Origin: a virus
Lineage: Duplodnaviria > Caudoviricetes
Length of the DNA stretch: 64,000 nt
IMG/VR virus record: IMGVR_UViG_3300042890_005066
Span: 1,777 to 65,776 of that record
Strand: one strand, 5' to 3'
Below, in pieces: positions 1-64,000 of the stretch (positions are counted from its first letter, which is position 1; every line of letters starts with the position of its first letter). Both the position numbers and the translations under genes were made by a program. Below the pieces are notes generated by a model. It ran no database searches. It worked only from the letters and a program-made list of their open reading frames with translations, and was not told where the DNA came from.

Positions 1-15
1 GCTCTGGCAATAAAA

Positions 16-804
16 TCATTGGTCAATGTTGAACTTATCATAGTATGAACTCAAAAAAGGACCTAGTATCTTGTGCGGGTGAGTACTAATTTTATTTAGC
101 GTGGGTCGGATAGCATGTAACCCATTAAGCCCCCAAGCAGCATCCTTCGACTCAGCACAAGCATTGTCAATGTTACCAAAATCATGATCACAGCCGCTTA
201 ATCCAAGATAATCATCAATTCTATTCATGGTCTCTAACGGAGAACCAGTAATCTCGTCATAAGACATCAATAAAATATTGCTACGATGATTGCTCAAACC
301 ATGAACAAGACTATTATAAGGATCAGAAATATAATTTTCCCACAAGCATTTAGCTCTAGCTTCAGTAGTGATAGGTATGCGCTTCTGCATAAGATGATTG
401 TCGACAAAATTGTCACCCTTTTGCTGATTCATAAGGACAATATACGACGTAATAACCTCGCTAATCGGCCTATAAGTGCACATTATTTTAGGAGAAGGAG
501 TTATGCACTTGGTGGCAGGCCAAACATTCCTGGGCCAACCCCTGTGCTTATCAATGATAACTGATTCATTATACTGACCATAATAAGTCTCGACGATAGC
601 TTTATAAATGTCAGTATCAATAGCCTCATTAAAAGTATAACAGACATTCAACCTATTGAAAGCTTCATTCGTAAAACACAATAAATCTAGCACCGGACTA
701 GTTGGAGTCACGTACACATCTCTTTGCTGGGCTAAAAGAGAACCAAGCAAAGTCGAACCACTTCTTGGCAAACCAGATAGGAAATGAATAGTTTTTACAG
801 ACAT
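16..804 (-). CDS. sulfotransferase family protein
   Basis: N-terminal PAPS-binding loop FLSGLPRSGSTLL; IIDKH; RPISEVITSY resembles the 3'-PB motif; YDEI near C-terminus. Confidence 0.85.
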   Translation of the reverse strand: MSVKTIHFLSGLPRSGSTLLGSLLAQQRDVYVTPTSPVLDLLCFTNEAFNRLNVCYTFNEAIDTDIYKAIVETYYGQYNESVIIDKHRGWPRNVWPATKCITPSPKIMCTYRPISEVITSYIVLMNQQKGDNFVDNHLMQKRIPITTEARAKCLWENYISDPYNSLVHGLSNHRSNILLMSYDEITGSPLETMNRIDDYLGLSGCDHDFGNIDNACAESKDAAWGLNGLHAIRPTLNKISTHPHKILGPFLSSYYDKFNIDQ

Positions 805-1502
805 CTATTATTCACCTTCATCATATGTGGATCGTTATATTTCTCAGTCTTTTCAGGGCTAGTAGACTCACCAGCCATATCAACCGCAAAAATCCCATGT
901 TGCACTATTGGGAATACATCTATCCTTAGCAACACATCAATACTAGTCACAATACCAAACTTAATAACATGAGTCAACAACTGCCTAGCTATCATAGGAT
1001 CAACAGCATAAGCGTGTGCCCTGAGCATGAACCTATAATTAGGATTTAATTGCCCATGGATAGGAATCAAGCCCCAATACTTATTCTCGACCTGCTCAAT
1101 ACTGCCGAGATACACAATGTTATTAATAGCATTATGATGAGTATAAGGCTGAACCATCACAGCGTCATGCTCAAGAATCACTATAGGCTGATCAATCTCA
1201 ACACACCTAGCCCATAAAGACAAATGGCTTAAAACTACAGACACCTCAGTCACAGCAAGTGCTGGGTTAATCTGCTTAATCCATTTCAAATATTGTCTGT
1301 CTTTAGAATGCTCAGGTATTAATATCTCGCCTTTAGTGCCATCAAAAGCATCGTATACCACATAATTCATGCCTACTTCTTTACAAGAATCTTGGCATCT
1401 TTGAGACATGGTTTCGGATAACTCATGCCCCTTCAATGTGATGATGTAAGCTGATTCTACTTCAGTGTTATACTTATATGAAAGCGATTCTTTGAGTATC
1501 AT
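795..1502 (-). CDS. glycosyltransferase family 25-like
   Basis: AYIITL, FDG, EVSVVLSHLSLW, IVILEHDA, AHAYAV, IDV pattern of GT25/LgtB-type enzymes. Confidence 0.7.
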   Translation of the reverse strand: MILKESLSYKYNTEVESAYIITLKGHELSETMSQRCQDSCKEVGMNYVVYDAFDGTKGEILIPEHSKDRQYLKWIKQINPALAVTEVSVVLSHLSLWARCVEIDQPIVILEHDAVMVQPYTHHNAINNIVYLGSIEQVENKYWGLIPIHGQLNPNYRFMLRAHAYAVDPMIARQLLTHVIKFGIVTSIDVLLRIDVFPIVQHGIFAVDMAGESTSPEKTEKYNDPHMMKVNNRCL

Positions 1503-2173: not shown

Positions 2174-3635
2174 TTAGTATCTCTTTTAATTTGGCTATTG
2201 GTTCATCCCATACTCTTGGGCGTTCCTGTCTCAGTAGTGTCACGTTGTCACCATACCATGGGCTCTGGTCTCCTGAGTGGGACCAAACATAGTATGCCGA
2301 GATCGGCACTAGTACTATTACTTTTTTGCCCATTGACGCGGCAGCATGAGCTATCGATGTGCAGGATGTAATCACGACGTCTAAGTTGGCTAGCGCACCG
2401 AACAGGTCTTCAATGGTTTCAAGATCACCACTTAGGTCTGATATGCCTGGGAAGTCTTGTAGTTCTTCTAGGCCATGGTCTCTTTGGAGGCTGTAATAAT
2501 AGTGATTTGGGTTTTTACCTATCGCTTCGTAAAGCTGCTTGACTGGGTATGATCTGTGCAGGTCATGGTCATATGCTGGATTACCTTGCCATCTGATGCC
2601 TATTTTCAGTCGTTTTGGTAATTCTTCTGGTAATGGTTCAAATCCTGAATAGTATGTCAGGTAGTTCCATGCGTAGTCTTCTAATTTTTTAGACCATTTT
2701 TCTACGAAGTCTTCATCAGCTTTCAAGTATGGTCCGTACCAGAGGTCTTCGTATTGCAAGTCTAGATAAATTGGTAGATGCATAGAATACGTCCATTGTA
2801 CTCCTGGTATTTTCCTTACTTCTGTTAGGTCGTTGATGACGGTGAAGCCGTTGTTTTGGAATAGTTCGGTTAAGCCTTTTCGTTCATCGTTGGTGGCTTT
2901 TCCATGCCATTTGGCATACCAGTATGGTGTTATGCCGCGATCTTTAAGATGCTTCATGAATCTGATATTGATTATTTCATCACCGATTCCTGCTTCTGCG
3001 TAGATTATCAAATGTTTAACATCTGGAGAGCCTTGCCAGAATGGCAGGTCTAATTCTTGGTTTCTGTTGAATATTGTTTCGGTATTCCATAGTTTCATTT
3101 TGGCACCGTCTAATATGAAGTGCCTCAGTCCTTCTTGGAATTTATCTCTGTATAGGTAATAAGTCCCTAGGTTAAAGTTGATTTTTATTCTTGTCTGTTC
3201 GGATATGTCTTTGCTTTCTAGCGCTTTGTGTAGTATTTCTTCTGCTTCTGGTTTTCTGTTTAATAGGTATAGTGAGTATGCTTTTTCGAGTTGCACGTCT
3301 GCGTCTTGTGGCATGATGCGTTCGTTGCATTTAATATATGTGAGTGCTTTTTCTGGTTGGTTTGCGTGGTTGTAGACGTTTATTAGGTTGTTTCGTGTGA
3401 TATAGGTATGTTGTGGGCTTGGTGCCACTACGAGTGCCTTTTCGCCATATTTAATGGCTTCCATATAGTTCTTGAGCTTGAAGTAGCATTTTGATATATT
3501 GTCGTATTGTGGGAAGTGCCCGGCATGTTTGGCGAATGTTTCTAGGATTTGGAAGGATAGGTCTGTCCTTCCAAATTTTTCCAACATGTATGTGATCGGC
3601 TCGAGGTCGTCTACGCCTTTTGGTTGTTCATCCAT
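2166..3635 (-). CDS. TPR-repeat protein with C-terminal GT9/GT-B-like domain
   Basis: Helical TPR-like N-terminus; AEAGIGDEI, IGIRWQGNP, DVVITSCTSIAHAAASMGK, SPWY typical of TPR+glycosyltransferase proteins. Confidence 0.75.
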   Translation of the reverse strand: MDEQPKGVDDLEPITYMLEKFGRTDLSFQILETFAKHAGHFPQYDNISKCYFKLKNYMEAIKYGEKALVVAPSPQHTYITRNNLINVYNHANQPEKALTYIKCNERIMPQDADVQLEKAYSLYLLNRKPEAEEILHKALESKDISEQTRIKINFNLGTYYLYRDKFQEGLRHFILDGAKMKLWNTETIFNRNQELDLPFWQGSPDVKHLIIYAEAGIGDEIINIRFMKHLKDRGITPYWYAKWHGKATNDERKGLTELFQNNGFTVINDLTEVRKIPGVQWTYSMHLPIYLDLQYEDLWYGPYLKADEDFVEKWSKKLEDYAWNYLTYYSGFEPLPEELPKRLKIGIRWQGNPAYDHDLHRSYPVKQLYEAIGKNPNHYYYSLQRDHGLEELQDFPGISDLSGDLETIEDLFGALANLDVVITSCTSIAHAAASMGKKVIVLVPISAYYVWSHSGDQSPWYGDNVTLLRQERPRVWDEPIAKLKEILNG

Positions 3636-4176
3636 TTTTCACCACCAGTAGTTTTATGAAGACGTCTTTGTATACGTTATTAAACCGTTTGCTGAGTGTA
3701 TCGAGCTCTTCGTATTTGCCTTCTGTGGCGAGGTGTTGGAAGTCATCGTCGACTGAGTATGAGTAGTCTGCTACTTCGAAGTCTACATTTAATCTGGGGG
3801 CGAAGCCGCTGCTACTTTCGTGGTGTTCTTTATGCCACTCACAGTATTTCTTGCTGAATTGTCTTAGCATGTTGACTGTTATTGGGCGTCTGTGGGTTGG
3901 GTCGCCGTAGTAGTTTTCGTGTCTGTGGTGTGGTACTGCTATGTCGATTATTGCACTGTCTTGGCAGACTCTATATAATTCTTTAATGACGTGGAAGAAG
4001 CCTTCTCCTATATGTTCTAGGATGTGGTGGGCTCTTATTTCTTCTATGCTGTTGTCTTCGAATGGCCAGGTTTCTGTTTCGAGGTTGAAGCAGTAGTCTG
4101 GTTGTGTTAATGGGTCGTGGTCTACGTTTTGGTAACCGTCTAGTCTTTTGTAGCCGCCGCCTATGTTTAGCTTCAT
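3628..4176 (-). CDS. class I SAM-dependent methyltransferase
   Basis: KLNIGGG motif I, WPFEDNS, HILEHI, ELYRV, DPTH. Confidence 0.75.
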   Translation of the reverse strand: MKLNIGGGYKRLDGYQNVDHDPLTQPDYCFNLETETWPFEDNSIEEIRAHHILEHIGEGFFHVIKELYRVCQDSAIIDIAVPHHRHENYYGDPTHRRPITVNMLRQFSKKYCEWHKEHHESSSGFAPRLNVDFEVADYSYSVDDDFQHLATEGKYEELDTLSKRFNNVYKDVFIKLLVVKNG

Positions 4177-4574
4177 CGTTTTTCCTGTATGAAGTCTTCT
4201 GGGCCGTATAGTTCTATTGTTTTATTGTATCGCATGATTATATACTGGGTGTTGTGTTTGTGTGCGAAATCAGTTAGTTCTGATATGGCTTGTGGGTTGA
4301 CGTTATTTGTTATTTCTATGGCTCTTAGGAATTGTCCTTTTGTCCATTTTTCTACTGAGATCATGAGTCCTGATTGGTCTGGTCTCATCCATTCTGGGAA
4401 TAGTTCTTGGGTCCATGCGCATTGGTAGTTTTTGCAGACTTCGGGTCTTGCGTTGTATATGAGGCATCCTGAGCATTGGAATGGGCATTTATTGTTTAAT
4501 ATGGTTAGGCCATATACATTTAGCTTTAGGTGGCCGTCGCAACAGGCTGTGCATTCAGAGCAAGGTCGCATCAT
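4173..4574 (-). CDS. YkgJ-like Cys-cluster (CxxCxxCC) protein
   Basis: CSECTACC, CPF, CLIYNARPEVCKNYQC; start reassigned to ATG 4574 overlapping the upstream TGA (ATGA coupling). Confidence 0.65.
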   Translation of the reverse strand: MMRPCSECTACCDGHLKLNVYGLTILNNKCPFQCSGCLIYNARPEVCKNYQCAWTQELFPEWMRPDQSGLMISVEKWTKGQFLRAIEITNNVNPQAISELTDFAHKHNTQYIIMRYNKTIELYGPEDFIQEKR

Positions 4575-6956: not shown

Positions 6957-8186
6957 TTAATAATTACCATCAGCAATAGCAGCAGTAAAGCCAATACCGC
7001 CTGCAACTAGTTTCCAAGTAGTCCCACCAGCAATAGTCTGAACCGGCGACGATCTACTTCCTGTTGTATTATTACCAAGCTGGCCAAAAGCGTTAAAACC
7101 CCACAACCATAACGCACCATCAGATTTAACACAAGCAGTGTGCGCACTACCACACGAAACATTTTTCCAATTTGTCCCACCAGCAATAGTCTGAACCGGC
7201 GACGATCTACTTGTTACTGTATTATTACCAAGCTGGCCAAAAGCGTTAAAACCCCACAACCACAATGTACCATCAGTCTTAACAGCAGCAGTATGACTTT
7301 GGCCACACGCAACTTGTTTCCAATTTGTCCCACCAGCTATAGTCTGAACAGGTGAAGATCTCTTTGCTGTTGTGTTATTGCCAAGTTCGCCACTAATGTT
7401 ATTACCCCCCCACAACCATAATGTACCATCAGTTTTAACACAAGCAACATGGCCATAACCACATGATACTTGTTTCCAATTTGCCCCCCCTGTAATAGTC
7501 TGAACAGGGGAAGATTTATGCACTGTTGTATTATCACCAAGTTGACCATAACTGTTACAACCCCACAACCATAATGTACCATCAGATTTAACACCAGCAG
7601 AAAAACCCACAAACGAGCTAGATGCGGATACTTGCGTCCAATTTGCCCCACCAGTTATAGTCTGGACCGGCGACGATTTAGCCCCTGTATTACCTATACC
7701 AAGTTCACCATAGGCATTTCTGCCCCACAACCATAACGTACCGTCAGTCTTAACACCAGCAGTATGAAAATATCCGCACGCAACTTGTTTCCAATTTGTC
7801 CCCCCAGTAATTGTCTGAACAGGGGAAGATCTATCCACTATTGTATTATCGCCAAGCTGACCAGAGTAACTATTGCCACCCCACATCCATAATGTACCAT
7901 CAGTTTTAACACAAGCTGTGTGCTGATAACCACATGCAGCTTGGCTCCAATTTGCCCCACCAGTGATTGTCTGGGCCGGTGACGACCTATTCACTACTGT
8001 ATTATTACCAAGTTGACCAGAACTATTGCTACCCCACATCCACAATGCTGGGGTCTTCACACCCGGTATTAAATTAGGGTAAACATCTATGATATAATCC
8101 TTTAAAACCCAACCAGTCGCCCCAAAATCAGTATTTAACATCTGATCTCTAAAGCCAGTGACTATTGTCCGATCGACAACTGTCAT
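6957..8186 (-). CDS. RCC1-repeat beta-propeller protein
   Basis: Very regular ~51-aa RCC1 repeats; leader KDYIIDVYPNL.PGVKTPALWMWG. Confidence 0.9.
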   Translation of the reverse strand: MTVVDRTIVTGFRDQMLNTDFGATGWVLKDYIIDVYPNLIPGVKTPALWMWGSNSSGQLGNNTVVNRSSPAQTITGGANWSQAACGYQHTACVKTDGTLWMWGGNSYSGQLGDNTIVDRSSPVQTITGGTNWKQVACGYFHTAGVKTDGTLWLWGRNAYGELGIGNTGAKSSPVQTITGGANWTQVSASSSFVGFSAGVKSDGTLWLWGCNSYGQLGDNTTVHKSSPVQTITGGANWKQVSCGYGHVACVKTDGTLWLWGGNNISGELGNNTTAKRSSPVQTIAGGTNWKQVACGQSHTAAVKTDGTLWLWGFNAFGQLGNNTVTSRSSPVQTIAGGTNWKNVSCGSAHTACVKSDGALWLWGFNAFGQLGNNTTGSRSSPVQTIAGGTTWKLVAGGIGFTAAIADGNY

Positions 8187-8187
8187 A

Positions 8188-8877
8188 TCACTTCTCCTTA
8201 GATATCACGACAACAGCGTCAATATCATCTAAAGTAGAGCAAGCATCAATCTCATTAACCTTAGCTAACTCCCAATCAAAAGCAGACTGAACACTCTTAT
8301 CAACCTGCGAAAGAATATACTCAATATCAGCCCTATTCAAATTCACCCAACCATCCTGCAACTTCCAATTTATAAACTCATCACCCAAAGGAGGCAGCTT
8401 AGAAGCCAGTAAAGACCTGGTTGCCTTGTCAGTCCTAATAGTGACAGAACGACCGACAGGTAGAAAATCGACACCAACTGTCAAACTATCAGGCACATAA
8501 GACGGAGGAGAAAAAGGCAGAGACAGAGTTAAATCAACATTCTCCTTGTTATAACGCTCAACAGCCACCTCTTGCTTCAAATTACCCTTTGCGATATCAA
8601 TATTAAGAGGACTGGTATAATAAGTCGCGATCACTCTATCCTCTTGAATATCCCATAATGGACCATCAAGATATTGGGTTCTAGGATTGCAATCCTGCCT
8701 GATTTCTATGAGTGGTAATATTCTAGTACGGAGATCAAGAGAAAATGGTACTCTGTCCTGGTCAGACATCATCACCATACCCGCTACACCAAGGTCACGC
8801 AATTCAGAATTAATACGCCCAAGATACCATTTATCAAAGGTTATGGAAATCTGATTCATATAGACAAGAGCATACAT
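8188..8877 (-). CDS. fibre accessory protein (DUF4376-like C-terminus)
   Basis: RYNKE, INWK, VQSAFDWE, IDACSTLDDIDAV pattern; paralog of 50255..50956. Confidence 0.55.
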   Translation of the reverse strand: MYALVYMNQISITFDKWYLGRINSELRDLGVAGMVMMSDQDRVPFSLDLRTRILPLIEIRQDCNPRTQYLDGPLWDIQEDRVIATYYTSPLNIDIAKGNLKQEVAVERYNKENVDLTLSLPFSPPSYVPDSLTVGVDFLPVGRSVTIRTDKATRSLLASKLPPLGDEFINWKLQDGWVNLNRADIEYILSQVDKSVQSAFDWELAKVNEIDACSTLDDIDAVVVISKEK

Positions 8878-8880
8878 TTT

Positions 8881-9513
8881 TTAGACTCCTATCTCTTTAA
8901 GATCTAAAGCCACCAGAACAGCGTCAAGATCACAGACACTACCAGTAGCAAAACCGACCATATTAGAATAAACAGCAGTCGAAGTCTCAGCATCACATCT
9001 TACATAGAACAGCGTTTGTACACCACTACTCTGAGTACCGCCAAATAGCTCAAGAGCCAAGAGTTGTGCTTTGGCATCTTCTGTAATAGAGACTACTGCG
9101 CCATAGTGTGTTGCTGGTTCCACGCCGGACCCTGATAATGGTATGTCAAAGCTATTGCCGGGTGCTATAACAGCAGCCATCGAGTTGTATTGGTCTTTAG
9201 CTGGCTCTAAGCAGACCATATAATAGAGGTATGGTGTCGAGCTTTGGCCATCTGCGACTGTGACGTTGCCTGCGGTTGCTTCTATTGCCGTAGCTGCGTC
9301 TTGTTTTGCTTTTTCTATTTCGTATAGCTTAACGTGTTGTGTTATAAACCCACGGATCACGCTATTTGCAAAAACAGCTTTGCTTTGCGGATTCGGGATG
9401 GTTCCTGTACCGTTTGGGTTGGGTACTGTGTTTTGGTAGCTGAAGTTAGCAGCGATTGCATCAAATACTCTATCTGAGTCGATGTCTGCTATATAAATTG
9501 AAAGCGTTGCCAT
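8881..9513 (-). CDS. hypothetical fibre-cassette protein
   Basis: Full-length paralog of 52231..52827 (MA.LS.YI...D.DRV, HVK..EI, YVRCD, LVAL.L.EIG). Confidence 0.7.
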   Translation of the reverse strand: MATLSIYIADIDSDRVFDAIAANFSYQNTVPNPNGTGTIPNPQSKAVFANSVIRGFITQHVKLYEIEKAKQDAATAIEATAGNVTVADGQSSTPYLYYMVCLEPAKDQYNSMAAVIAPGNSFDIPLSGSGVEPATHYGAVVSITEDAKAQLLALELFGGTQSSGVQTLFYVRCDAETSTAVYSNMVGFATGSVCDLDAVLVALDLKEIGV

Positions 9514-15184: not shown

Positions 15185-15493
15185 ATGTATAACCCTGAAA
15201 AACCGACATTTAACGTCTCCGAACCATTTCTAGGTGTCACGAGCGTACAGCTAAACAGACCCATGGTAGACCTACTGATAAACGTGCTGCAAGACCAAGA
15301 AGGCCAACTAGAAAAAGAAGTATGGGCATTAGTCAGAGCTTTAAACGACCCAGCTGGCTGTAGAGAAATGAGAGCACAACGCAAACGCCTCATTAGACCG
15401 ACAAGACCAAGATACAACACAAGATACAACCAATACGAAGAATACGAACAAGACACAGAAATAGACGAAACACAAGACCAACCAAACGAATAA
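15185..15493 (+). CDS. hypothetical protein
   Basis: AGGA RBS, divergent from fibre gene, followed by terminator. Confidence 0.7.
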   Translation: MYNPEKPTFNVSEPFLGVTSVQLNRPMVDLLINVLQDQEGQLEKEVWALVRALNDPAGCREMRAQRKRLIRPTRPRYNTRYNQYEEYEQDTEIDETQDQPNE

Positions 15494-15497
15494 TCAC

Positions 15498-15523
15498 AAG
15501 GCACGGTGAAAACCGTGCCTTTT
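15498..15523 (+). terminator. rho-independent terminator
   Basis: AAGGCACGGT-GAAA-ACCGTGCCTT followed by T residues, between convergent genes. Confidence 0.8.
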
Positions 15524-16020
15524 CAATAGACCTTACAATTATCAACCATAAAATCACCGATATTAGTCTTAATAATAACATCATAAACATCAGACTCAAG
15601 AGCTATCACCTTCACACCATAATGTGCTGAATGAATATGCTCAACAAGCTTCTTAATCTCACCATCGACAACGATCTGAGAATAGCAAACCGGGCAAATT
15701 AACTGAACAGTTTCCTCCCACAAATCGTCTAATAAAAAAAGAAACTCTAGATATTCATAAAATTTAGCCTTGTATACTTCATCGTACGAGAAGCATACTT
15801 GGTCCATCACGACAGAAAAATAATACCTCTCATCATCAAATCGTTTTATTTCGATAGAACCAAGCTTTACAGTATCATCGTTGATAATATGCACACACTC
15901 ACCCGAAAGTCTAAAAGGACCATTCTTCCTAGTGCTAAAAGCTTCAGCTATTCTCTTGATGCGTCTGATCTTACCGCCAGTAGCGATACCCAAAACATCA
16001 TACATCATCATTGTCACCAT
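15523..16020 (-). CDS. hypothetical protein with C2H2-like zinc finger
   Basis: CPVC...HIHSAH near C-terminus. Confidence 0.6.
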   Translation of the reverse strand: MVTMMMYDVLGIATGGKIRRIKRIAEAFSTRKNGPFRLSGECVHIINDDTVKLGSIEIKRFDDERYYFSVVMDQVCFSYDEVYKAKFYEYLEFLFLLDDLWEETVQLICPVCYSQIVVDGEIKKLVEHIHSAHYGVKVIALESDVYDVIIKTNIGDFMVDNCKVY

Positions 16021-46827: not shown

Positions 46828-46879
46828 CGAAAAATCCCCGTATGTATTGTTAATATATATTTACAAGGAGTCGCTGAAT

Positions 46880-50255: not shown

Positions 50256-50956
50256 TATACGACCCCCGAATCGGGTAAACCAGGATTAGCAGGCTCCTCA
50301 AGATTCTCAGGCTTCTCAATAATCTTAACAGCGATCAAATCATCCAGACTATAACAATTATCGACCTCAGCGTGCTTATTAAATTCCCAATCATATACAC
50401 TCTGCACATGTTCGTCAATATGAAGGATCATGAGCTCTAAATCCAAATGGTTTACAAGTGCCCATCCTTCATTAAATTTCCAATTGATGAAGTCATTCCC
50501 TGTGGTCGCTAGCTTAGATGATATCAATGACCTTGTCTCTCTGCTTGTCGAGACTGAGACTGTTTCGAAAAGCTCGGCTTTGTCATTTATTATGGGTATT
50601 GGTATTTGTATAGTTGTTGTTTCTTTAGCGTATCTGATTGTTGTGATATTTTCTTTTAAGATGCCTTTTGCTATGTTTAGGTCTAGTGGTCTTGTGTAGT
50701 AGTTGGCTATTACTTTGTCTTCTTGTATGTCGTAGGTTGGTCCGTCGTAGCATTGTATTCTCGGGTTTATTGGTGGGTATGATACGAGGTATTTTAGTAT
50801 TTTGGTGTCTTCGTCTATCGTTATGGGGACGTTTTGTTCGTCTGATGGGTATATTGTTTTGTTGATTTCTAGGTCTTGTAGTTCTGAGTTCAGTCTACCG
50901 ACGTACCATTTTTCGCTGGTGATCGTTACGTTGTTTTTGTGAACTATCGCGTACAT
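50255..50956 (-). CDS. fibre accessory protein (DUF4376-like C-terminus)
   Basis: Paralog of 8188..8877. Confidence 0.55.
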   Translation of the reverse strand: MYAIVHKNNVTITSEKWYVGRLNSELQDLEINKTIYPSDEQNVPITIDEDTKILKYLVSYPPINPRIQCYDGPTYDIQEDKVIANYYTRPLDLNIAKGILKENITTIRYAKETTTIQIPIPIINDKAELFETVSVSTSRETRSLISSKLATTGNDFINWKFNEGWALVNHLDLELMILHIDEHVQSVYDWEFNKHAEVDNCYSLDDLIAVKIIEKPENLEEPANPGLPDSGVV

Positions 50957-50968: not shown

Positions 50969-52231
50969 TTAGATATTTTGCTGAATAGCACCAGTAAAAT
51001 GCCAGCCGCATGTTACTTGCGACCATTTCTTGCCACCAAATGTCTGCACGGGTGAAGACTTGTCCACTGTTGTGTCATCACCAAGCATCCCTATTGCCTG
51101 AGTCCCATAAATGTATAGATTATTATTGCCCCACATCCATAGCGTACCATCTTGTTTAATGGCTGCTGTGGTCGAATGACCTTTTGATACTTTATGCCAA
51201 TTCGTACCACCGCTTACGGTCTGAACTGGTGAGGACCTTGTTATTATAGTATTATCGCCAAGTTGACCATAAGCATTACTACCCCACATCCACAATGTTC
51301 CGTCAGTCTTCACAGCCGCAGTTGATCCTCTAACATCAAAATAATACCCATTCCCGCTATTACACGAGACTTGCTTCCAAGTAGTCCCACCGGTGATGGT
51401 CTGGACCGGACTAGATGTACCAACTGTGGTATTAGTACCAAGATTTCCGGTAAAGTTTGGTCCCCATAACCATAACGTACCGTCTGTTTTAACAGCAGCT
51501 GTATAAGTACCACTACATGATACTTGTTTCCAAGTAGTACCACCGGTTATAGTCTGAACTGCTGAAGATTTGCTTACAACGGTATTATCACCAAGCTGTC
51601 CATTATCATTGTAGCCCCATAACCATAACGTACCATCAGTTTTTATAGCTGCCATATGGGTTTGCCCACACGCTACTTGTTTCCAAGCACCACCAGCCAT
51701 GGTTTGAACTGGCGAAGATTTTGGCACAACAGTATTATCGCCAAGCTGACCCAAATCATTTCTGCCCCAAGCCCAAAGTGTTCCATCAGTCTTAATAGCA
51801 GCAGTAAAACCAACACCACACGCTACTTGTTTCCAAGTAGTTCCTCCAGTTATCTCCTGGGTTGGTACGGAAACACTCGTGTAAACATTGGCGGGGTATG
51901 GGAGTGCCTGACCGTTGCCTATTTGACCATATTCATTTGATCCCCAGCTATACAATTTATTATCTGCAGTAATGGCAGACATGCATGATGCATATCCATT
52001 CCTAACGCCTGAACATGAAATTTGCGTCCAATAATAATCGTTTATGACCGTAGGTACTAATACTACATGATTTGTATATTGATATCCTTGGCCGAATATT
52101 CCCCAGACTCTTTGCGCGAAATTTTTGCCCCACATCCATATCTGCCCGGTTTGCCTCACATGTTGATCAACAATGTCAGCGTCAGTGAAGTAAAAATTAT
52201 TGAGATTTACACCGCCTGAATAGAATGGCAT
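50969..52231 (-). CDS. RCC1-repeat beta-propeller protein
   Basis: RCC1 repeats with loop insertions. Confidence 0.9.
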   Translation of the reverse strand: MPFYSGGVNLNNFYFTDADIVDQHVRQTGQIWMWGKNFAQRVWGIFGQGYQYTNHVVLVPTVINDYYWTQISCSGVRNGYASCMSAITADNKLYSWGSNEYGQIGNGQALPYPANVYTSVSVPTQEITGGTTWKQVACGVGFTAAIKTDGTLWAWGRNDLGQLGDNTVVPKSSPVQTMAGGAWKQVACGQTHMAAIKTDGTLWLWGYNDNGQLGDNTVVSKSSAVQTITGGTTWKQVSCSGTYTAAVKTDGTLWLWGPNFTGNLGTNTTVGTSSPVQTITGGTTWKQVSCNSGNGYYFDVRGSTAAVKTDGTLWMWGSNAYGQLGDNTIITRSSPVQTVSGGTNWHKVSKGHSTTAAIKQDGTLWMWGNNNLYIYGTQAIGMLGDDTTVDKSSPVQTFGGKKWSQVTCGWHFTGAIQQNI

Positions 52232-52827
52232 TATACACCACCAATCTCAGTAAGACCAAGGGCAACCAAAACATCCCCAAAAGTGCACAACTCGCCGATC
52301 TTATCAAAACCCACAATATTACTACTCACAGCAATATTGCTAACAAAATCACACCTCACATAATACAAAAGAATCGAGCCTCCAGACTCCGTGCCCCCCA
52401 ATAACTCCATCGCAGCAAGGCTCTCCCTCATACCCTCAGTAGCAGCCAAAGACAAACCCCAATACAAGTCACCAATGCTATTCGCAAGATTCACATTAAA
52501 AACCGAACCAGGCAACAGCTGCCCAGCAATCCCATCATATTGAGCCTTAACAGCATCAACACACACCATATGATATTGATAAGGAGTGACGGTTGTAGCA
52601 TCTTCCAGATCAACGTGGCTACCAGCAATAGCAGCCGCCTCAGCAGCTACCCTAGCCTCAGTGATCTCAAAAGCCTTAACATGCTCCTGAAGAAAATTCC
52701 TGATGACTTGATTCACAAAAGACTGTATTGTCTGCCCAGAATCACTAGACCAACCATGATTAGAAGCGACCGCATTGAGTACACGATCAGTATCAGACTC
52801 AGGAATATACACAGAAAGAACAGCCAT
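52231..52827 (-). CDS. hypothetical fibre-cassette protein
   Basis: Paralog of 8881..9513. Confidence 0.7.
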   Translation of the reverse strand: MAVLSVYIPESDTDRVLNAVASNHGWSSDSGQTIQSFVNQVIRNFLQEHVKAFEITEARVAAEAAAIAGSHVDLEDATTVTPYQYHMVCVDAVKAQYDGIAGQLLPGSVFNVNLANSIGDLYWGLSLAATEGMRESLAAMELLGGTESGGSILLYYVRCDFVSNIAVSSNIVGFDKIGELCTFGDVLVALGLTEIGGV

Positions 52828-53014
52828 TACTTCACGAACCTTTCAACAAGAGCCTCAAGAAGTTTAATTCTCTTATCTTAATCTTTGATCGCCGCATTGA
52901 GTACACGATCAGTATCAGACTCAGGAATATACTCAGAAAGAACAGCCATTACTTGACAAGCCTTTCAACAAGAGCTTCGAGCAGTTTAATTCTCTTATCC
53001 TGATCTTTGATCGC
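52771..53014. repeat. 122-bp tandem duplication of the fibre/next-gene junction
   Basis: 52771-52892 vs 52893-53014, 9 mismatches by manual alignment. Confidence 0.95.
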
Positions 53015-56000
53015 CTCAATCAATACAGCAATAAGATTACCATACGCAACCGACTTCAAACCTTTATGCGTCAACACTACCTCAGGTATGATATCCTCGA
53101 CTTCTTGAGCGATCATACCGATACCATGTCCACCAGATTCAATCCAATCGAATTCCACACCACGCAAGTTATTCACTTTGTCAACTGCACCAGTAATAGT
53201 GGTGATATTATTTTTCAAAGTCCGGTCAGACAATGCTGTGATACTGCCACCAGCAGTAAGATCGCCAGTGGAGGGATTAAAATAAAGTTTTGAAGATGAT
53301 GTATTAGCTGTAGAGACTGAACCAGACGTGGCATTAGTAAAAATAAGATATCGCGTAGCATTTGAAGACGTATCATCAGCAACTGTCAAGCCACCTGTGA
53401 TATCAGTGAGGAAGGCAACTGTCTCACGAGTAGTCGATGGTGTGAATAAAAGTCTAGTACCGTTGAATTCCATATTGCCAGCAGCCGCAGCCGTCATATT
53501 CGTACCACTGGTGAACCTCAAAGGTCCCGTGGTAGCGTTACCAGCAGCAAGATTGACTGTCTTGTTAGATAAAGTCTCAATACCAGCTAGCGTCGCCAAG
53601 GTACCAGCAGTCGGAAGTGTGATTGAAGTGGTACCGGTGGCTGTTAATGTGCGGGCAAAAGCCCCAGCATGAGTAACGTTACCGGCCATTGTTAACGTAA
53701 AGCCGGTATTCGCTATACCTGTACCGCCGTACTGACCTGGGATTACGTTACCATTCCAAGTCGTGTTGGTCGACATGGTTTTATTAGTAAATGATTCTAT
53801 GCCAGCTAGCGTCGCTAAAGTCCCAGCAGTTGGTAATGTAACTGATGTAGTTCCAGTAGCTGTAAAAGTCTGAGTAAAAGCCCCAGCATGACTGACGTTA
53901 CCAGCCATAGTAAGAGTAAAACCAGTATTCGCTATACCTGTACCGCCGTACTGACCTGGGATTACGTTACCATTCCATGTCGTATTAGTCGACATGGTTT
54001 TATTAGTGAATGATTCTATGCCTGCTAATGTAGCGAGAGTCCCAGTAGTTGGTAAAGTGACCGATGTTGTGCCAGTAGCTGTTAAAGTTTGGGCGAAAGC
54101 CCCAGCGTGACTGACGTTACCAGCCATCGTTAACGTAAAGCCGGTGTTCGCTATTCCTGTACCGCCATACTGGCCGGGGATGACGTTGCCATTCCAGGTC
54201 GTATTGGTCGACAATGTTTTATTGGTAAACGATTCAATACCAGCTAGCGTCGCTAAAGTGCCGGTGGTCGGAAGAGTAACTGAAGTGTTAGCCGTAGAGG
54301 TTAAGGTCGTGGTAAAAGCACCAGAAGTGGTTAAATTTCCGCCAATTGTGATAGTTTTTCCAGTGTTTGCTGCCCCAGTTCCACCGTATTGACCTGCTAC
54401 TACTGCCCCGCTCCATGTACCGGTTAAATTACTGTCAAGGTAAGCATTGACTTTTCTACTACCAGCAAAAGAGAAGTAATAATTCGTGTTATCAAACTCG
54501 ATAGAACCATTGGCCACCGCAGTAGTATTGGAACCAGAGGTGAGGACTAGCCCAGCAGCAGTGGTGTTACCGGCGCTTGTAGTGATGTACTTGTTGCTTA
54601 AGGATTCAGTACCAGCTAGCGTAGCTAGAGTCCCAGCAACTGGCAATGTGACTGAAGTGTTAGCAGTGGCTGTTAAAGTAGTAGTAAACGCACCACTAGT
54701 AGTAAGATTCCCGCCGATAGTAATAGTTTTGCCAGTGTTTGCGATTCCAGTACCACCGTACTGCCCTGCTATAACATTACCATTCCACGTCGTGTTAGTC
54801 GACAATGTTTTATTCGTAAATGTTTCTGACCCAGCTAACGTGGATAAAGTGCCAGCCGTAGGCAACGTCACGCTGGTGGCTGCGACGGTCGTTAAAGTCA
54901 CATCGAAAGCGCCAGATGTCGTTAAATTCCCACCTATAGTAATAGTCTTACCAGTATTCGCTACTCCAGTACCACCGTACTGCCCTGCTATAACATTACC
55001 ATTCCACGTCGTGTTAGTCGACAATGTTTTATTAGTGAATGATTCTAGACCAGCTAGCGTCGCTAAAGTACCGGCAGTTGGGAGGGTAACTGATGTGGTT
55101 CCGGTGGCTGTTAAGGTACGGGCGAAAGCCCCAGCATGAGAGACGTTACCAGCCATAGTTAAAGTGAAACCAGTATTTGCTATTCCAGTGCCACCGTATT
55201 GGCCGGGAATAACATTACCATTCCAAGTAGTGTTAGTCGACAATGTCTTATTAGTGAATGATTCTACACCAGCTAAAGTCGCTAAAGTACCGGTAGTTGG
55301 TAAAGTGACTGATGTGGTTCCGGTGGCCGTAAAAGTCTGTGCGAAAGCTCCAGCGTGTGAAACGTTGCCAGCCATAGTTAAAGTGAAACCAGTGTTCGCT
55401 ATCCCAGTTCCACCATATTGACCGGGAATCACATTACCATTCCAAGTCGTGTTGGTCGATAATGTCTTATTAGTGAATGATTCTATACCAGCTAGCGTCG
55501 CTAAGGTACCGGCAGTTGGGAGGGTAACTGAAGTATTAGCTGTAGCTGTTAAAGTCGTGGTAAAAGCGCCAGAAGTGGTTAGATTACCACCGATAGTTAT
55601 TGTCTTGCCGGTGTTGGCTATCCCAGTTCCACCGTATTGCCCTGCTACTACAGTTCCGGTCCAAGTACCTGTCATCGCACTATCTAGGTAAGCATTAACT
55701 TTCCTAGCACCGGCCACCGAAAAATAAAAATTTGTATTATCGAATTCTATAGAACCATTCGCAACGGCAGTGGTGTTAGAACCAGAGGTTAAGACTAACC
55801 CAGCGACTGTAGTGTTACCAGCACCTGTGGTGATATACTTGTTACTTAAGGATTCAATACCAGCCAGTGTTGCTAACGTTCCGGTCGTTGGTAAGGTAAC
55901 ACTGGTATTAGCAGTAGAAGTAAAAGTAGTAGTGAAAGCCCCGGATGTCGTTAAATTCCCACCTATAGTAATAGTCTTACCAGTGTTAGCGACTCCAGTT

Positions 56001-61650: not shown

Positions 61651-63908
61651 TATCCAAAATCCTCATCATCAACGACATTCTTCCTTTTATCATATTTAAA
61701 TTCACTATAAGTGCGGTTGAGAGGACTATCTGTAAATTCAAAGCTTCTCAATTTCACCATCTTGAGAAAATTGGTGACAATAGCCCTAGATAACCCAGAT
61801 TCGTCTACCAATTTTCCTATTAGCCCGTCGTGGGGCCGATCATCAGTCATCACTATTTTTTCTAAAGCATCTAAGATACTCAAATGGTCTGCACTATATT
61901 GGGATAATTGTCTGGCTTCTTGTAAAAACCTATCAACGATATTATTATTGTTACGTTGCCTTGTTCCTAGGTGATTCATATAGTTATGGCCGTTCTTTCT
62001 GTCTCTACCTTCTTTTTTAATGTATGCCAATATAACTGTTCTCGAAATCTGGGACCACATATTGAAAACTTTACTCATGCCTCTGTAGATTATTGTCTCT
62101 GTACCCCCGAAGCATCCTTGTCTTGGTAAGATGTATGGATACGATTCTAATTTAGTGTTACAGTGCGGGCAGGTTGGATGATTTAATATTACTTGGTTTA
62201 TCTTGATGATACCATATTCCCTAACATCTGGCATATAAAGAACTGAATCGGCTGGTCTATCTGGGTTAAAGCACGTGCGGCAGTGTGGTCTTGATCGGTA
62301 TTTGTACAGGGTGCGTTCTAGTTGGCAATTATGGGTTATAATGCCATTGGCCGTAAAATTATGAACATCCTTGACCCTAATGTCGTAAGTCTCAGATTCA
62401 CCGTATGAGATGTCTGACACTGGGAACCATCTAATCGTCCCGATCTCGATTCGGCGTTCGAGTAAGAACCTATCGGTAATGGCTAGGTCATCAACCAGCT
62501 TTATGAAAGTGTTGTCAGTCAGTCTTTTTTTCTTGATTATCAAATGCTTGTCGACCCCAATTATACTCAGAAGCTTTTTTGGCAGAACAGGGGAGGGGAG
62601 GTAGGCTCCGCAATAAACCTTCCTAATATACTCAATCATTTTTTGAGAGCTTACCATGTCCATATATTGAAATGGCTTACAGGATAGATTATCTTGCTTT
62701 TTTAGTTTATAATCAATTCTGAAGCCTATTTCGTCGTAAAATTTTCTCGAATCTCGTGTAGAAGCCTTTAACTGGTACGCTGTGCTGGCGATATGTGCCC
62801 ATCCCTTAGGACCAATCACTTCTCCTCTGTCGACTATAGTAGTCTTAGTGAATATCCCAAAATTCAATAAGAGTATTCGAAGCTGTTCTATCAGAGTAGG
62901 CGAACCAGAACTGTATCCGATCTCACCATTATGCTCTGACGAGTGCCCATCGCCATCAAACATCCCTTGCAGTAAAGCCACTAATATTTTCTTACTACAT
63001 CGAAACAGCCTATCTGGGATATGCTTATCTTTAAATGTCGTTCCTGGTGGAAGCCCGAGCTGTGTAAAAAGCTCTACCAATCTAATCCTATTGCACGTAT
63101 TCCTGCCCTCACCTTCATATCTGAATGTTAGGCCGGCTGGATTAGCTGAAAGGAAATCTATGACCTGTTGATTAGTGTTATAAATTATAACTCTGTTTTT
63201 TTCGATAGAACCTTCTGATATAACTAGACCTATTATATAAGCTAAGTCTTCTGTGAACATGTCTGGCCACCAATCGAAGGTGGCTCTCTTAACAGGGCTA
63301 TACTCCACATCATCTTCGTTGCCAAACACTTGCTGACCAGCCTGCACAGCAATCAGATCACCGATCTCTATTTTATCAGCGTTCTTAAAAAACGGACCAT
63401 CGGGTCCCATCACATAAAGAGGATGATCTCCAGTCGCTTCAATATTATAATGTTGAGCCAGCTTAATCTTGTATGTTCTTGTTTTCGGTCTTCTAGCCCA
63501 GTATTCAGCTAGATGCAGGCCATCCTTCCCAAACACTTTTATACTAATATCACCTTCTTCAGGGTGGTTCGCCAACATTTCAATAGGCATTAAACCACGC
63601 TCGGTGAATATCATAGTGCCAGGGACAACACACCACGCTGTTTGTAATAGATCTCCGAATGCCGATTCTTCTTGACCAGGGTATATCGTGTGCAAGCCTT
63701 GTTTTCTTATTATCTGCCTTATTAGCTCTGCTGCGTGGCTCATTATGCTGTCACGCAACTCTATCCTTGTACAGCCTGTCCAGATATATTGGGTCAGATC
63801 CCATTCTACTTTTTCGTTTATAAAATATAACTTTCTAAGCGGGGGCTCAACTTTTGTTGAGGTATCTACTGGTGATTTTCCAACGGTTTCTGATGAGTTC
63901 TGTTCCAT
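61650..63908 (-). CDS. gp55-like late sigma factor, intein-containing, with Zn-ribbon insert
   Basis: Extein LYFINEK..., DLLQTAW|CQLERTLYKY, KVFNMWSQISRTVILAYIKKE resemble sigma70 region 2/gp55; CRTC and CPHC insert. Confidence 0.65.
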   Translation of the reverse strand: MEQNSSETVGKSPVDTSTKVEPPLRKLYFINEKVEWDLTQYIWTGCTRIELRDSIMSHAAELIRQIIRKQGLHTIYPGQEESAFGDLLQTAWCVVPGTMIFTERGLMPIEMLANHPEEGDISIKVFGKDGLHLAEYWARRPKTRTYKIKLAQHYNIEATGDHPLYVMGPDGPFFKNADKIEIGDLIAVQAGQQVFGNEDDVEYSPVKRATFDWWPDMFTEDLAYIIGLVISEGSIEKNRVIIYNTNQQVIDFLSANPAGLTFRYEGEGRNTCNRIRLVELFTQLGLPPGTTFKDKHIPDRLFRCSKKILVALLQGMFDGDGHSSEHNGEIGYSSGSPTLIEQLRILLLNFGIFTKTTIVDRGEVIGPKGWAHIASTAYQLKASTRDSRKFYDEIGFRIDYKLKKQDNLSCKPFQYMDMVSSQKMIEYIRKVYCGAYLPSPVLPKKLLSIIGVDKHLIIKKKRLTDNTFIKLVDDLAITDRFLLERRIEIGTIRWFPVSDISYGESETYDIRVKDVHNFTANGIITHNCQLERTLYKYRSRPHCRTCFNPDRPADSVLYMPDVREYGIIKINQVILNHPTCPHCNTKLESYPYILPRQGCFGGTETIIYRGMSKVFNMWSQISRTVILAYIKKEGRDRKNGHNYMNHLGTRQRNNNNIVDRFLQEARQLSQYSADHLSILDALEKIVMTDDRPHDGLIGKLVDESGLSRAIVTNFLKMVKLRSFEFTDSPLNRTYSEFKYDKRKNVVDDEDFG
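62328..63632 (-). mobile_element. intein with LAGLIDADG homing endonuclease (435 aa)
   Basis: Block A CVVPGT, block B ATGDHP, IGLVISEG and LQGMFDGDG, block F/G TYDI.V..VHNFTANGIITHN followed by C+1. Confidence 0.95.
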
Positions 63909-63999
63909 CCATTAATCCACCAGGTAAGACAATTTTGACGGGATAGCCAGCCTCAATGATCGTTTGCATCCTTGCTTTTGAGTGCTGATAGAGATATTT
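63847..63999 (-). CDS. 3' end of a gene, probably UvsW-like helicase (partial)
   Basis: KYLYQHSKARMQTIIEAGY resembles the UvsW C-terminal motif; truncated by window edge. Confidence 0.4.
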   Translation of the reverse strand, partial: KYLYQHSKARMQTIIEAGYPVKIVLPGGLMDGTELIRNRWKITSRYLNKS

Positions 64000-64000
64000 A

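Follow-up and report, generated by a model that had tools for sequence, protein, structure and literature searches.

Gene content and skew domains of the window

The stretch of 64,000 nucleotides analysed here (the window) is part of the genome of a T4-like giant phage, uncultured and from fresh water, whose structural and packaging genes include those for the Gp23 capsid protein, portal, protease and terminase. Its silent sites flip between nearly pure A/C and nearly pure G/T at intervals of a few hundred to a few thousand bases. The bias was quantified as the third-position keto skew (K3) in windows of 50 codons. The 409 windows were highly heterogeneous (chi2 2261 on 408 df), with a K3 SD of 0.331 compared to a mean of 0.141 and a maximum of 0.154 in 1000 shuffles; phage T4, with an SD of 0.14, is at the level of the shuffled window. 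By gene, coding-strand K3 ranged from -0.72 to +0.68 (65 ORFs). The skew was strongest at third codon positions, which reach 90-100% A/C or G/T within domains, in line with the first-pass annotation, which had placed the bias mainly at silent sites. Its five hand counts of 20 codons each were reproduced exactly, with coding-strand third positions in A/C at 19/20 (4081-4140), 18/20 (14821-14880) and 20/20 (50701-50760), and in G/T at 17/20 (36661-36720) and 16/20 (50341-50400), and the sign that it gave to + strand K3 was correct for all 13 domains that it named.

The first + strand G/T domain (2200..4550; K3(+) +0.56, all-site keto skew +0.26) contains two genes on the minus strand, encoding a TPR protein and a protein resembling methyltransferases (Pfam/PHROG matches), which have K3 values of -0.48 and -0.72 and A/C-ending codons nearly throughout. 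An A/C domain lies at 7000..9000 (K3(+) -0.45). The short G/T domain at 14700..15050 (K3(+) +0.23) corresponds to the first ~125 codons of a 1225-aa fibre gene with an intragenic change point at codon 125, and is followed by an A/C domain at 15200..16300 (K3(+) -0.48). The G/T domain at 22500..25400 (K3(+) +0.37; gene table and 300-bp profile) covers one + gene and, in part or whole, three - genes and is therefore independent of orientation. The A/C domain at 25500..31800 (K3(+) -0.25) spans - genes and a + strand sugar-modification cluster (Pfam matches for 28726-31759). The Gp23-type major capsid gene, which has 50% C-ending codons and a change point at codon 472, lies with its upstream gene in the G/T domain at 34300..36200 (K3(+) +0.42), and the A/C domain at 36500..38000 (K3(+) -0.59) includes gene 36521-37447, the coding-strand third positions of which are overwhelmingly G/T. 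The G/T domain at 43600..44400 (K3(+) +0.38) falls within the N-terminal part of a 1099-aa gene. The portal gene, identified by a match, enters the A/C domain at 44900..47700 (K3(+) -0.39) from its change point near codon ~212, and a + gene follows. Gene 50255-50956, with its first ~140 codons almost purely A/C-ending and its last ~50 G/T-ending, overlaps the G/T domain at 50550..50950 (K3(+) +0.79), and the A/C domain at 52200..53300 (K3(+) -0.51) comprises the 3' end of a 1901-aa fibre gene together with gene 52231-52827. The domain at 59.2-61.6 kb, described as weak in the first-pass annotation, had a K3(+) of +0.10.

The skew follows the DNA strand

The skew is a real, heritable property of the DNA strand rather than of the gene. 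Across junctions between genes of opposite orientation, + strand K3 remained correlated in the window (0.60, n=14) and in a 231-kb relative, G001 (r=0.66, n=49; divergent 0.68, convergent 0.76), compared to r=0.56 for the tandem junctions of G001 (n=182). As in replication-associated asymmetry, one strand thus carries the G/T excess regardless of gene direction. The proposed independence of gene direction is therefore borne out for the domains, which run at the kb scale through orientation changes, so that gene orientation is not the explanation, but it does not extend to the ORF borders, which show a phase relation described below. Spacer skew followed the K3 of the flanking genes (rho 0.68 for 21 spacers; 0.57 for 72 spacers of G001), and K3 correlated with K1 (rho 0.66) and K2 (rho 0.40) in 49 genes. 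Gene identity alone is likewise insufficient, as significant change points fall inside 13 of 49 genes, paralogues at 43-44% identity differ in their skew patterns and ~40% of the excess K3 variance lies within genes.

The four-fold, T-versus-C and G-versus-A measures intercorrelated at 0.76-0.90. Four-fold sites consist of T.60, G.22, A.08 and C.10 in G/T zones and of A.51, C.30, T.10 and G.09 in A/C zones, so that the two zone types are nearly reverse-complement symmetric. The C>T plus A>G type of composition on one strand, noticed at the outset, is thus present, together with an extra excess of T over A. No single oligomer accounts for the skew (absolute z at most 5.9). Amino-acid usage moves along with the skew zone.

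Two processes that act on genes match the pattern poorly. Transcription-associated asymmetry would leave a G/T-rich coding strand, whereas the + genes of G001 are A/C-coded (-0.15) and its - genes G/T-coded (+0.07), and the domains cross orientation changes. Translational codon-usage selection would restrict the bias to synonymous sites and tie it to the coding sense, whereas K1, K2 and spacers covary with K3 and the skew goes with the DNA strand.

Position of the steps relative to ORFs

A feature that had not been noticed before is that G/T-to-A/C steps are located at ORF junctions and A/C-to-G/T steps inside ORFs. A sharp example of the former lies at 36428..36521 (junction table), and others at 4428-4571, 9513-9551, 15085-15160, 16903-16991, 18852-18930, 27094-27183, 44785-44845, 50956-50969 and 52231. 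For all seven window junctions with D>=0.6, the maximum-likelihood change point was offset by -5 to +8 codons, and G/T-to-A/C steps were ~10 codons or less from an ORF junction in 7/7 cases in the window and 6/8 in G001. The opposite steps avoid junctions, with 2-6% within 75 bp compared to 19% at random (step window h=60). In addition, the 5' thirds of genes are more A/C-rich than the 3' thirds in both orientations (-0.18, p=2e-9). Both the locking of steps to ORF junctions and this 5'-to-3' gradient count against a pure DNA-level process, which would need added assumptions to accommodate the locking.

These observations would instead fit selection on mRNA or decoding, by which the phage would use two codon dialects, one A/C-ending (Watson-Crick pairing with U34/G34 tRNAs) and one G/T-ending (wobble), the 5' parts of ORFs and highly expressed genes such as that of the capsid being held A/C-ending and unstructured. 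We regard this as unlikely, although it is consistent with the locked steps, with the trend along genes regardless of orientation, with the 50% C-ending codons of the capsid gene and with the T or G found at the first anticodon position in 19 of the 23 tRNAs of G006, a complete relative. However, with a skew that belongs to the DNA strand, opposite-orientation neighbours are anti-correlated in the coding sense; spacers and the first two codon positions shift as well, the composition is near reverse-complement symmetric, some genes (e.g. 52231-52827) are G/T-ending from codon 1, the 43-44% identical paralogues have different patterns, and neither the window nor the 231 kb of G001 contains a tRNA gene.

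The first-pass annotation had further described the switches as quasi-periodic and of one preferred polarity. Several major steps do have G/T on the left and A/C on the right; however, both polarities occur in similar numbers (window: 17 G/T-to-A/C and 17 A/C-to-G/T; G001: 52 and 43) and are similarly sharp. Power in the 6.5-9 kb band exceeded that of gene-order shuffles in the window (8.9 compared to 3.9+-2.0, p=0.013) and in G001 (9.1 compared to 3.2+-0.9, with 0/300 shuffles as high), but the spacing of large steps has a CV of 0.5 for the window and of 0.77-0.79 for G001 (random = 1). The 8-10 kb length scale is thus only weakly periodic. Parts of the window show sawtooth-like stretches between major steps, another resemblance to replication asymmetry. 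Neither step type is marked by a sequence motif or a GC dip, and the search for a motif at the switch centres, suggested by the annotation, yielded none shared by the 24 G/T-to-A/C steps.

The absence of a common motif at these 24 steps bears on the explanation first put forward from the sequence, namely programmed site-specific double-strand breaks, made for instance by homing nucleases, followed by 5'-3' resection and deamination of the 3' tails. At 36.4 and 44.8 kb, G/T on the left does meet an extra-strong A/C signal on the right that decays over ~2 kb, and the window encodes a LAGLIDADG protein (32153-33856) and a nuclease-Mom fusion (39131-40693). These nuclease genes lie 2-3 kb away from the major steps, however, and a search of G001 with four homing-nuclease families gave one Mom, no LAGLIDADG_3, no GIY-YIG and one HNH_3 match, that is, two matches for 52 G/T-to-A/C steps. 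Breaks would moreover predict a sharp G/T-to-A/C change with a gradual return, whereas the opposite steps are equally sharp. In keeping with breaks, the 3' end of the capsid gene, where it adjoins the LAGLIDADG gene, forms a diverged tract, but the capsid side of this site appears, by our reasoning on signs, to be opposite to what tail deamination would produce. Overall, such breaks seem improbable as the cause.

In T4-type phages, co-converted or recoded tracts are found beside homing endonuclease genes. The capsid 3' end, diverged and with a different codon style from codon 472, resembles such a tract. Unlike the tracts known from homing, the steps are far too many for the nuclease genes present; co-conversion explains at most a few of them, and was rejected as a general cause in view of the two matches to four families compared to 95 steps in G001.

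Conservation among relatives and lineage distribution

The same profile was found in G001 (r=0.98 over 135 windows), and distant relatives with saturated third positions keep the positional pattern (r=0.57-0.83), whereas the profile correlation is about 0 for relatives without strong skew. The conservation at saturated silent divergence also fits selection, and counts against a DNA-level origin. Strong skew is lineage-specific, with sister lineages that lack the pattern: of 52 loci from relatives, each of at least 12 kb, 17 had a K3 SD>=0.26, 30 had an SD<=0.20 and five were intermediate; the SD in LR756511 was 0.16. A quick capsid tree requires at least three changes between strong skew and none. 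In all five contigs of relatives, genes on the majority strand are G/T-coded, whereas those on the minority strand are A/C-coded. No global sign flip was detected along the 231 kb of G001 or the 408 kb of G006, and in G006 the link between skew and gene strand is absent (rho 0.13).

The agreement of independent contigs (r=0.98) also bears on whether the domains are foreign relics, inversions or a product of chimeric assembly. The window is a mosaic relative to G001, with blocks at 65-98% identity, and the 22.5-25.4 kb domain is compatible with a simple inversion. However, switches occur within intact ORFs (13/49 genes), both step types are non-random relative to ORF junctions, the pattern is conserved at saturated divergence, and 12 DNA runs, besides the two possible source samples, each contain half or more of the sampled words. 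Chimeric assembly, which the first-pass annotation had listed as a possible artefact, is thereby ruled out, and this whole class of explanations, contradicted on each of these points, is extremely unlikely.

Recent substitutions and replacement patches

Polarised singletons (14-31 counts per class) showed, in + strand A/C zones, per-site rates of 0.127 from G/T to A/C and 0.056 in reverse, and in + strand G/T zones rates of 0.052 compared to 0.045. The A/C-zone rates agree with a continuing C>T and A>G excess on the G/T-rich strand, as expected from single-strand deamination, whereas the G/T-zone rates do not, and the counts are too small to demonstrate a bias still at work. With 34% of columns masked, recent changes in + strand G/T zones comprised 14 towards G/T and 29 away (p=0.03). 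Such erosion is unexpected under a steady-state mutation pressure and counts against a DNA-level process; in the A/C-coded, capsid-type zones recent changes oppose the skew, which is how slightly deleterious variants would behave under selection.

Allelic replacement patches are frequent (200-bp difference table). In the patch at 36481..37280 (- strand), two relatives have almost the same sequence, from which the window departs by 15-30%, and one end of the patch coincides with the step at 36428-36521. T4-type phages recombine heavily, and biased gene conversion during modular recombination could produce domains if tracts stopped at gene junctions and each strand of a tract gained G/T in its 3' portion. 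We reason that an invading 3' strand would favour G or T in heteroduplex, with tolerance of G.T mispairs and rejection of A.C mispairs. The A/C then G/T unit, read 5' to 3' on both strands, resembles a tract with two 3' ends, and the frequent patches, one of them bounded by a major step, point in the same direction, as does the tie of a published analogue, GRINS, to gene conversion (PMC8256042). The ends of homology blocks between the window and G001 did not, however, stand out by significantly larger steps (mean D 0.19, n=17, compared to 0.12, n=51, at other junctions; p=0.54), the replaced gene 36521-37447 is one-signed along its whole length, T.60 compared to A.08 at four-fold sites requires more than transitions, and the genome-wide layer of the bias is left unaccounted for. 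Gene conversion is quite unlikely to be the explanation.

Comparison with known systems

GRINS are the closest published analogue (PMC8256042, 2021). As described there, they share >80% identity with other copies in the gene cluster that holds them and are linked to conversion among these repeats, and their GC-TA skew correlation is 0.70 inside and 0.09 outside (PMC8256042). Likenesses to that description include GC and TA skews that are intense, rise and fall together and take both signs on one strand within 1 kb, abrupt changes that are maximal at third codon positions, proteins that remain functional, and amino-acid shifts, with more Gly and Val in G/T zones and more Pro, Thr, His and Gln in A/C zones; Cys departs from the published trend (PMC8256042). 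The GRINS skew definition (more than 500 bp with mean absolute GC and TA skews above 0.15; 150-nt windows, step 30, smoothed) picked out six regions of 540-1080 bp, 4410 bp in total. In the phage, GC and TA skews correlated at r=0.37 over 2129 windows, third positions being dominant. The repeats are lacking, as the 65.8-kb contig contains no intragenomic matches of >=300 bp at >=80% identity. Unlike GRINS, the phage pattern extends over the whole genome in single copy, with its steps locked to ORF junctions, and is superposed on a genome-wide strand bias.

Replication-associated asymmetry is known as the ori/ter skew of bacteria and the skew N-domains of mammalian genomes. The phage differs from an ori/ter skew in having no single flip over 231 (G001) or 408 kb (G006) and 52+43 local steps in G001, in its far larger amplitude, and in sharp sawtooth jumps that are opposite in sign to origin jumps. 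On the heavy strand of animal mitochondria, deamination of the displaced strand gives one polarity per genome, with a gradient from two origins. Here, too, third positions can consist to ~90% of two bases, with C>T-type and A>G-type shifts on the same strand; unlike mitochondria, however, the phage has many domains of both polarities and steps at ORF borders.

Interpretation

The reading that we prefer, although we would stop just short of calling it probable, is a strand-specific, mostly silent substitution bias at the DNA level, in which one strand per domain is exposed single-stranded or is copied or corrected in a polar manner. The bias has two layers, a genome-wide one that makes the majority-coding strand G/T-rich regardless of local gene direction, and fixed domains of 0.3-3 kb that intensify or reverse it. 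The same strand would be exposed, or copied or corrected in a polar manner, in every generation, during replication or recombination-dependent repair, so that it would build up C-to-T and A-to-G transitions as well as an excess of T, and polarity would switch at anchors, from G/T to A/C at ORF junctions and from A/C to G/T within ORFs. Single-strandedness or polar repair as the cause, and the nature of the anchors, are what we infer from the pattern. Fixed breaks with resection, fixed fork-direction domains and polar heteroduplex tracts have the same geometry and are indistinguishable here, and fixed termini with internal origins fit it as well as the break model.

In a further-reaching form, which we consider speculative and unlikely as a whole, the silent sites would be a fixed heritable map of strand handling, with ~40-50 polar units of roughly 8-10 kb and smaller sub-units, anchored without a motif at gene junctions and written by a machinery gained and lost among sister lineages, and the same process would underlie the GRINS-type skews of bacteria.

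Since amino-acid composition moves with the skew, the domains distort phylogenies and estimates of dN/dS, as well as gene finding and the prediction of hosts from codon usage. As sister lineages exist with and without the pattern, they can be compared to look for the gene or host factor behind it. If a DNA-level process writes the domains, the phage would offer a tractable model for the intense nucleotide skews of bacterial gene clusters (GRINS), and its silent sites would be a sequence-only read-out of giant phage replication and recombination, recording strand, direction and anchors.

Strength and length scale of the skew

The keto skew (G+T-A-C) ranges from -0.29 to +0.36 in 500-bp windows. 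At third codon positions of the coding strand, the same skew (K3) runs from -0.72 (gene 3628-4176) to +0.68 (52231-52827) among 65 ORFs, which lie mostly on one strand. Heterogeneity among 409 windows of 50 codons is high (chi2 2261, 408 df), and the standard deviation (SD) of K3 is 0.331, compared to 0.141 (maximum 0.154) in 1000 shuffles. In 50 kb of phage T4 the SD is 0.14, which equals the binomial value, and it is 0.16 in 50 kb of LR756511, an uncultured phage of 595 kb. Long runs of third positions are almost pure. In gene 50255-50956 the third positions of the first ~140 codons are ~90% A/C and those of the last ~50 are ~90% G/T, and G/T is overwhelming in the third positions of the last 130 codons of gene 36521-37447. 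The five 20-codon hand counts of the first-pass annotation were exactly reproduced, and the sign of all 13 of its listed domains was confirmed. The skew pattern is thus real and strong, and it is heritable. The earlier description was largely right, but its claims on periodicity and polarity need qualification.

Major steps from a G/T-rich left side to an A/C-rich right side of the + strand (G/T|A/C steps) lie near 4.5, 15.1, 25.5, 36.4, 44.8 and 51.0 kb. Band power was compared with that of gene-order shuffles. The 6.5-9 kb band was raised in the window (8.9 vs 3.9+-2.0, p=0.013) and in G001, a collinear 231-kb contig of a relative (9.1 vs 3.2+-0.9, reached by 0 of 300 shuffles). In G006, another relative, the 9-12 kb (10.8 vs 2.6+-0.7) and 12-17 kb (7.7 vs 2.5+-0.9) bands were raised, and three further relatives (G002, G003 and G004) had no raised band against gene-order shuffles (p 0.29-0.71). 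The coefficient of variation of step spacing was 0.5 in the window, 0.77-0.79 in G001 and ~0.95 in G006. The quasi-periodicity initially proposed is thus partly borne out, as the spacing has a characteristic scale but follows no strict period.

Strand versus codon property

K3 covaries with the skew at first (rho 0.66) and second (0.40) codon positions in 49 window genes, and likewise in 163 genes of G001 (0.66 and 0.38). The skew of intergenic spacers tracks the K3 of the flanking genes (rho 0.68 for 21 spacers, 0.57 for 72 spacers). The skew at four-fold degenerate sites, the T-versus-C choice and the G-versus-A choice are correlated (0.76-0.90). The composition of four-fold sites in G/T zones (T.60, G.22, A.08, C.10) is nearly the complement of that in A/C zones (A.51, C.30, T.10, G.09). 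Amino-acid usage moves with the zones, with opposite shifts for Gly, Val and Phe and for Thr, Pro, Ile and Gln.

The first-pass annotation had claimed that the domains are independent of gene direction, and the test considered decisive, the correlation of + strand K3 across gene junctions, supports a property of the DNA strand. Across junctions of oppositely oriented genes the correlation was 0.66 in G001 (n=49; divergent 0.68, convergent 0.76) and 0.60 in the window (n=14), similar to the value for tandem junctions (0.56, n=182). As the opposite-orientation values are positive on the + strand, such neighbours are anti-correlated in the coding sense. The G/T domain at 22.5-25.4 kb covers one gene on the + strand and three on the - strand, and the A/C domain at 25.5-34 kb crosses - strand genes and the + strand sugar-modifying cluster.

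A genome-wide layer was also detected. In G001, + strand genes are A/C-coded (-0.15) and - strand genes G/T-coded (+0.07), and in five contigs of relatives the strand carrying most genes is G/T-rich, the minority-strand genes being A/C-coded. The complete 408-kb G006 genome showed neither a sign flip nor a link of skew to gene strand (rho 0.13), and the absence of a sign flip rules out an ori/ter pattern for this layer. A defining test speaks against each of three known kinds of bias: ori/ter skew, transcription skew and codon selection.

Phase of the steps with ORF borders

The phase relation of the steps to the ORFs is new in this analysis. Of the 49 window genes with 150 codons or more, 13 had a significant internal change point, the 5' part being the more A/C-rich in 12; in G001 this was true of 48 of 163 genes (39 vs 9 with the more A/C-rich 5' part). 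K3 in the first third of genes minus that in the last third was -0.18 (p=2e-9), which is also true of + strand genes. As the order 'A/C then G/T' in the 5' to 3' direction is its own reverse complement, on the + strand the junctions receive the G/T|A/C steps and the gene interiors the A/C|G/T steps, whichever direction the genes have.

Steps were called with h=60 and a threshold of 0.6, and those no more than 75 bp from a gene border were considered near it, as expected for 19% of random positions. By this measure 65% of 17 G/T|A/C steps in the window and 52% of 52 in G001 were near a border, compared to 6% of 17 and 2% of 43, respectively, for the A/C|G/T steps. Among the 231 junctions of G001 the step size D exceeded 0.4 at 34 and was below -0.4 at one. 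The offset of the strongest junction steps from their junction was between -5 and +8 codons in the window (7/7) and no more than 10 codons in G001 (6/8). The polarity initially proposed is partly right: G/T|A/C is preferred at junctions, but the opposite steps are overall about as numerous and as sharp.

About 40% of the excess variance (0.037 of 0.092) lies within genes. Relative to the gene middle, K3 differs by -0.08 in the 5' 60 codons and by +0.06 to +0.12 in the 3' 60 codons, whatever the orientation of the neighbour. An apparent 'divergent > tandem > convergent' ranking of the junction effect was rejected as a pure 5'-end effect, being mostly a product of the genome-wide strand effect.

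Source phage and gene content

The window (64 kb) corresponds to positions 1777-65776 of a viral contig of 65,776 bp with a CheckV completeness of 22%. By its gene content the source is a T4-like giant phage. The major capsid protein is of the Gp23 type (34079-35665, minus strand; Pfam Gp23, E=2e-77), and further head and packaging genes are those for a head maturation protease (40767-41489), a portal protein (44845-46827) and a large terminase (58673-60661). RCC1-repeat proteins and long fibre proteins are also encoded. Megablast against isolated phages gave no match to the window, and the closest capsid among them has 38% identity. Besides two possible source samples, at least 12 lake or freshwater DNA runs contain 50% or more of the words sampled from a 10-kb stretch. 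Among the 24 sequencing runs listed, all of which consist of contigs, X3 and X5 are almost identical to the window and X6 and X9 carry a variant. G001 (231,672 bp) aligns with the window in blocks of 88-98% identity.

Terminator-like hairpins were found immediately after the capsid gene (34017-34046, minus strand; strong, with a 13-bp stem and 8 G-C pairs) and after the protease gene (40712-40737). Just downstream of the capsid gene lies a LAGLIDADG ORF (32153-33856, minus strand; Pfam LAGLIDADG_3, 1.6e-6), in which no methyltransferase part was found by a Pfam scan at E<=0.01; it is missing from G001, where homology resumes at 34083. ORF 39131-40693 (minus strand) fuses a REase_MTES_1575-type nuclease fold to a Mom-family GNAT domain (Pfam Mom, 6.6e-15). 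ORF 46781-48241 (plus strand) has no significant Pfam match, and ORF 61650-63908 (minus strand, 752 aa) has only weak PHROG matches (a family of unknown function; terminase-like, 2.8e-8). Inside the head-gene region, a cluster of sugar- or small-molecule-modifying enzymes (28726-31759 and 38401-39138, both plus strand) comprises a hexapeptide acyltransferase, methyltransferases, DUF5672, a family 2 glycosyltransferase and a TylF-type O-methyltransferase, all on the minority strand. Two paralogous cassettes (4571-9513 and 49032-52827) each contain RCC1-repeat genes and two small genes, the small-gene pairs sharing 43-44% identity. The 1225-aa and 1901-aa fibre genes have many internal repeats in common (65-86% identity), also with G001.

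Inheritance and distribution

The skew profiles of the window and G001 are almost superimposable (r=0.98, 135 windows of 300 bp). In orthologous 40-codon windows the correlation was 0.74-0.83 with loci L007-L009 of other relatives and 0.57-0.69 with L019-22, L025, L040, L041 and L054. For these relatives amino-acid identity is ~0.62 and, where residues are identical, ~0.5 of third positions agree, so that silent sites are saturated. With relatives lacking strong skew, r was between -0.2 and +0.3.

Among 52 loci of relatives (at least 12 kb), the SD was at least 0.26 in 17, at most 0.20 in 30 and intermediate in 5. This classification by capsid locus is imperfect, as G006 is 'unskewed' there, yet over its first 200 kb has an SD of 0.24 and the same continuity across junctions. 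On a quick capsid tree, on which these results rest, the skew state is clustered (6 changes vs 13.6 in shuffles), at least 3 changes are forced by well-supported branches, and sister lineages include strongly skewed and unskewed ones. The Mom-nuclease gene near the capsid gene showed no association with the skew trait (4/17 vs 6/30); a 1099-aa gene near the capsid gene did (15/17 vs 8/30), but relatedness confounds this association.

Paralogues at 43-44% identity have different skew patterns. The TPR-gene relatives, at 58% identity, lie in another gene order and the A/C zone is absent there. Together with the distribution among lineages, this indicates that the pattern follows place and lineage, not protein family. 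Coding K3 is weakly linked to third-position divergence (rho 0.26). Mosaicism or gene conversion was rejected as the origin of the steps inside genes, since no 20-codon block of the paralogue pairs 50255-50956/8188-8877 and 52231-52827/8881-9513 departs from the low range of 30-65% nucleotide identity, and thus there was no recent conversion.

Tests of mechanism

The dominant signal is a DNA-level, strand-specific, domain-wise substitution bias. Its tentative explanation, which we consider plausible, is that one strand of each domain is regularly exposed as single strand, or is copied or corrected in a polar manner. This would occur in replication or in recombination-dependent repair, and the domains would be anchored at ORF junctions. 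The fixed double-strand breaks with 5'-3' resection initially suggested are a possible member of this class, but their geometry would equally result from polar heteroduplex tracts or from domains of fixed fork direction. A search at 24 G/T|A/C and 16 A/C|G/T steps of G001 found neither a motif nor a GC dip, the lone outstanding word there being the stop/start overlap. Matches to nuclease families in the 231 kb of G001 were Mom 1, HNH_3 1, LAGLIDADG_3 0 and GIY-YIG 0.

Recombination is frequent between 34 and 45.7 kb, where the window, locus L002 and G001, three close genomes, differ patchwise. Gene 36521-37447 in the window carries a replaced allele (36481-37280), 15-30% different from L002 and G001, whose copies are almost identical. 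On one side this patch ends at the 36428-36521 step, and both alleles have the same extreme G/T-ending codon style. Where homology blocks shared by the window and G001 end, steps were not significantly larger than at other junctions (0.19 vs 0.12, p=0.54).

Singleton substitutions were polarised in the same three genomes after masking of recombinant patches (34% of columns), because the unmasked count is dominated by the imported allele at 36481-37280. In + strand G/T zones 14 changes were to G/T and 29 away (p=0.03), in A/C zones 24 were to G/T and 17 away (per-site rates 0.056 and 0.127), and in mixed zones 31 were to G/T and 16 away. These small counts suggest a maintaining bias in the A/C zones, but not in the G/T zones, which are mostly the capsid region.

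No oligomer emerged as a cause, as no word went beyond |z| 5.9 against synonymous-codon shuffles; this test showed the usual avoidance of Shine-Dalgarno-like words, and the Shine-Dalgarno sites of the genes are ordinary. The T4 late-promoter word occurs twice vs 4.5 expected and is not used. G006 (loci L135, L142 and L146) encodes 23 tRNAs in two clusters, with T or G at the first anticodon position in 19, which pair by Watson-Crick rules with A- and C-ending codons; there are no tRNA genes in the window or in the 231 kb of G001. Two adjacent G006 genes were called tRNA-SeC with anticodon TCA and could read TGA. Selection on mRNA or decoding would account for the locking to ORFs, the conservation and the capsid gene, but we regard it as an unlikely source of the pattern, as it conflicts with the strand continuity, the complement symmetry and the fact that non-silent positions shift too. 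Selection may contribute a minor second component, seen as the -0.08/+0.1 change from the 5' to the 3' parts of genes.

Comparison with known systems

Our literature search found no description of this skew pattern for phages, although the supplements of the paper on GRINS, the intense nucleotide skews of bacteria, may list phage genes. In that paper (PMC8256042), GRINS are defined as copies of >80% identity, whereas such copies are absent from the window. The compositional signatures are alike, and the mechanism is unexplained in both cases. The pattern described here is of a kind already known from GRINS, present in the window in a single-copy form.
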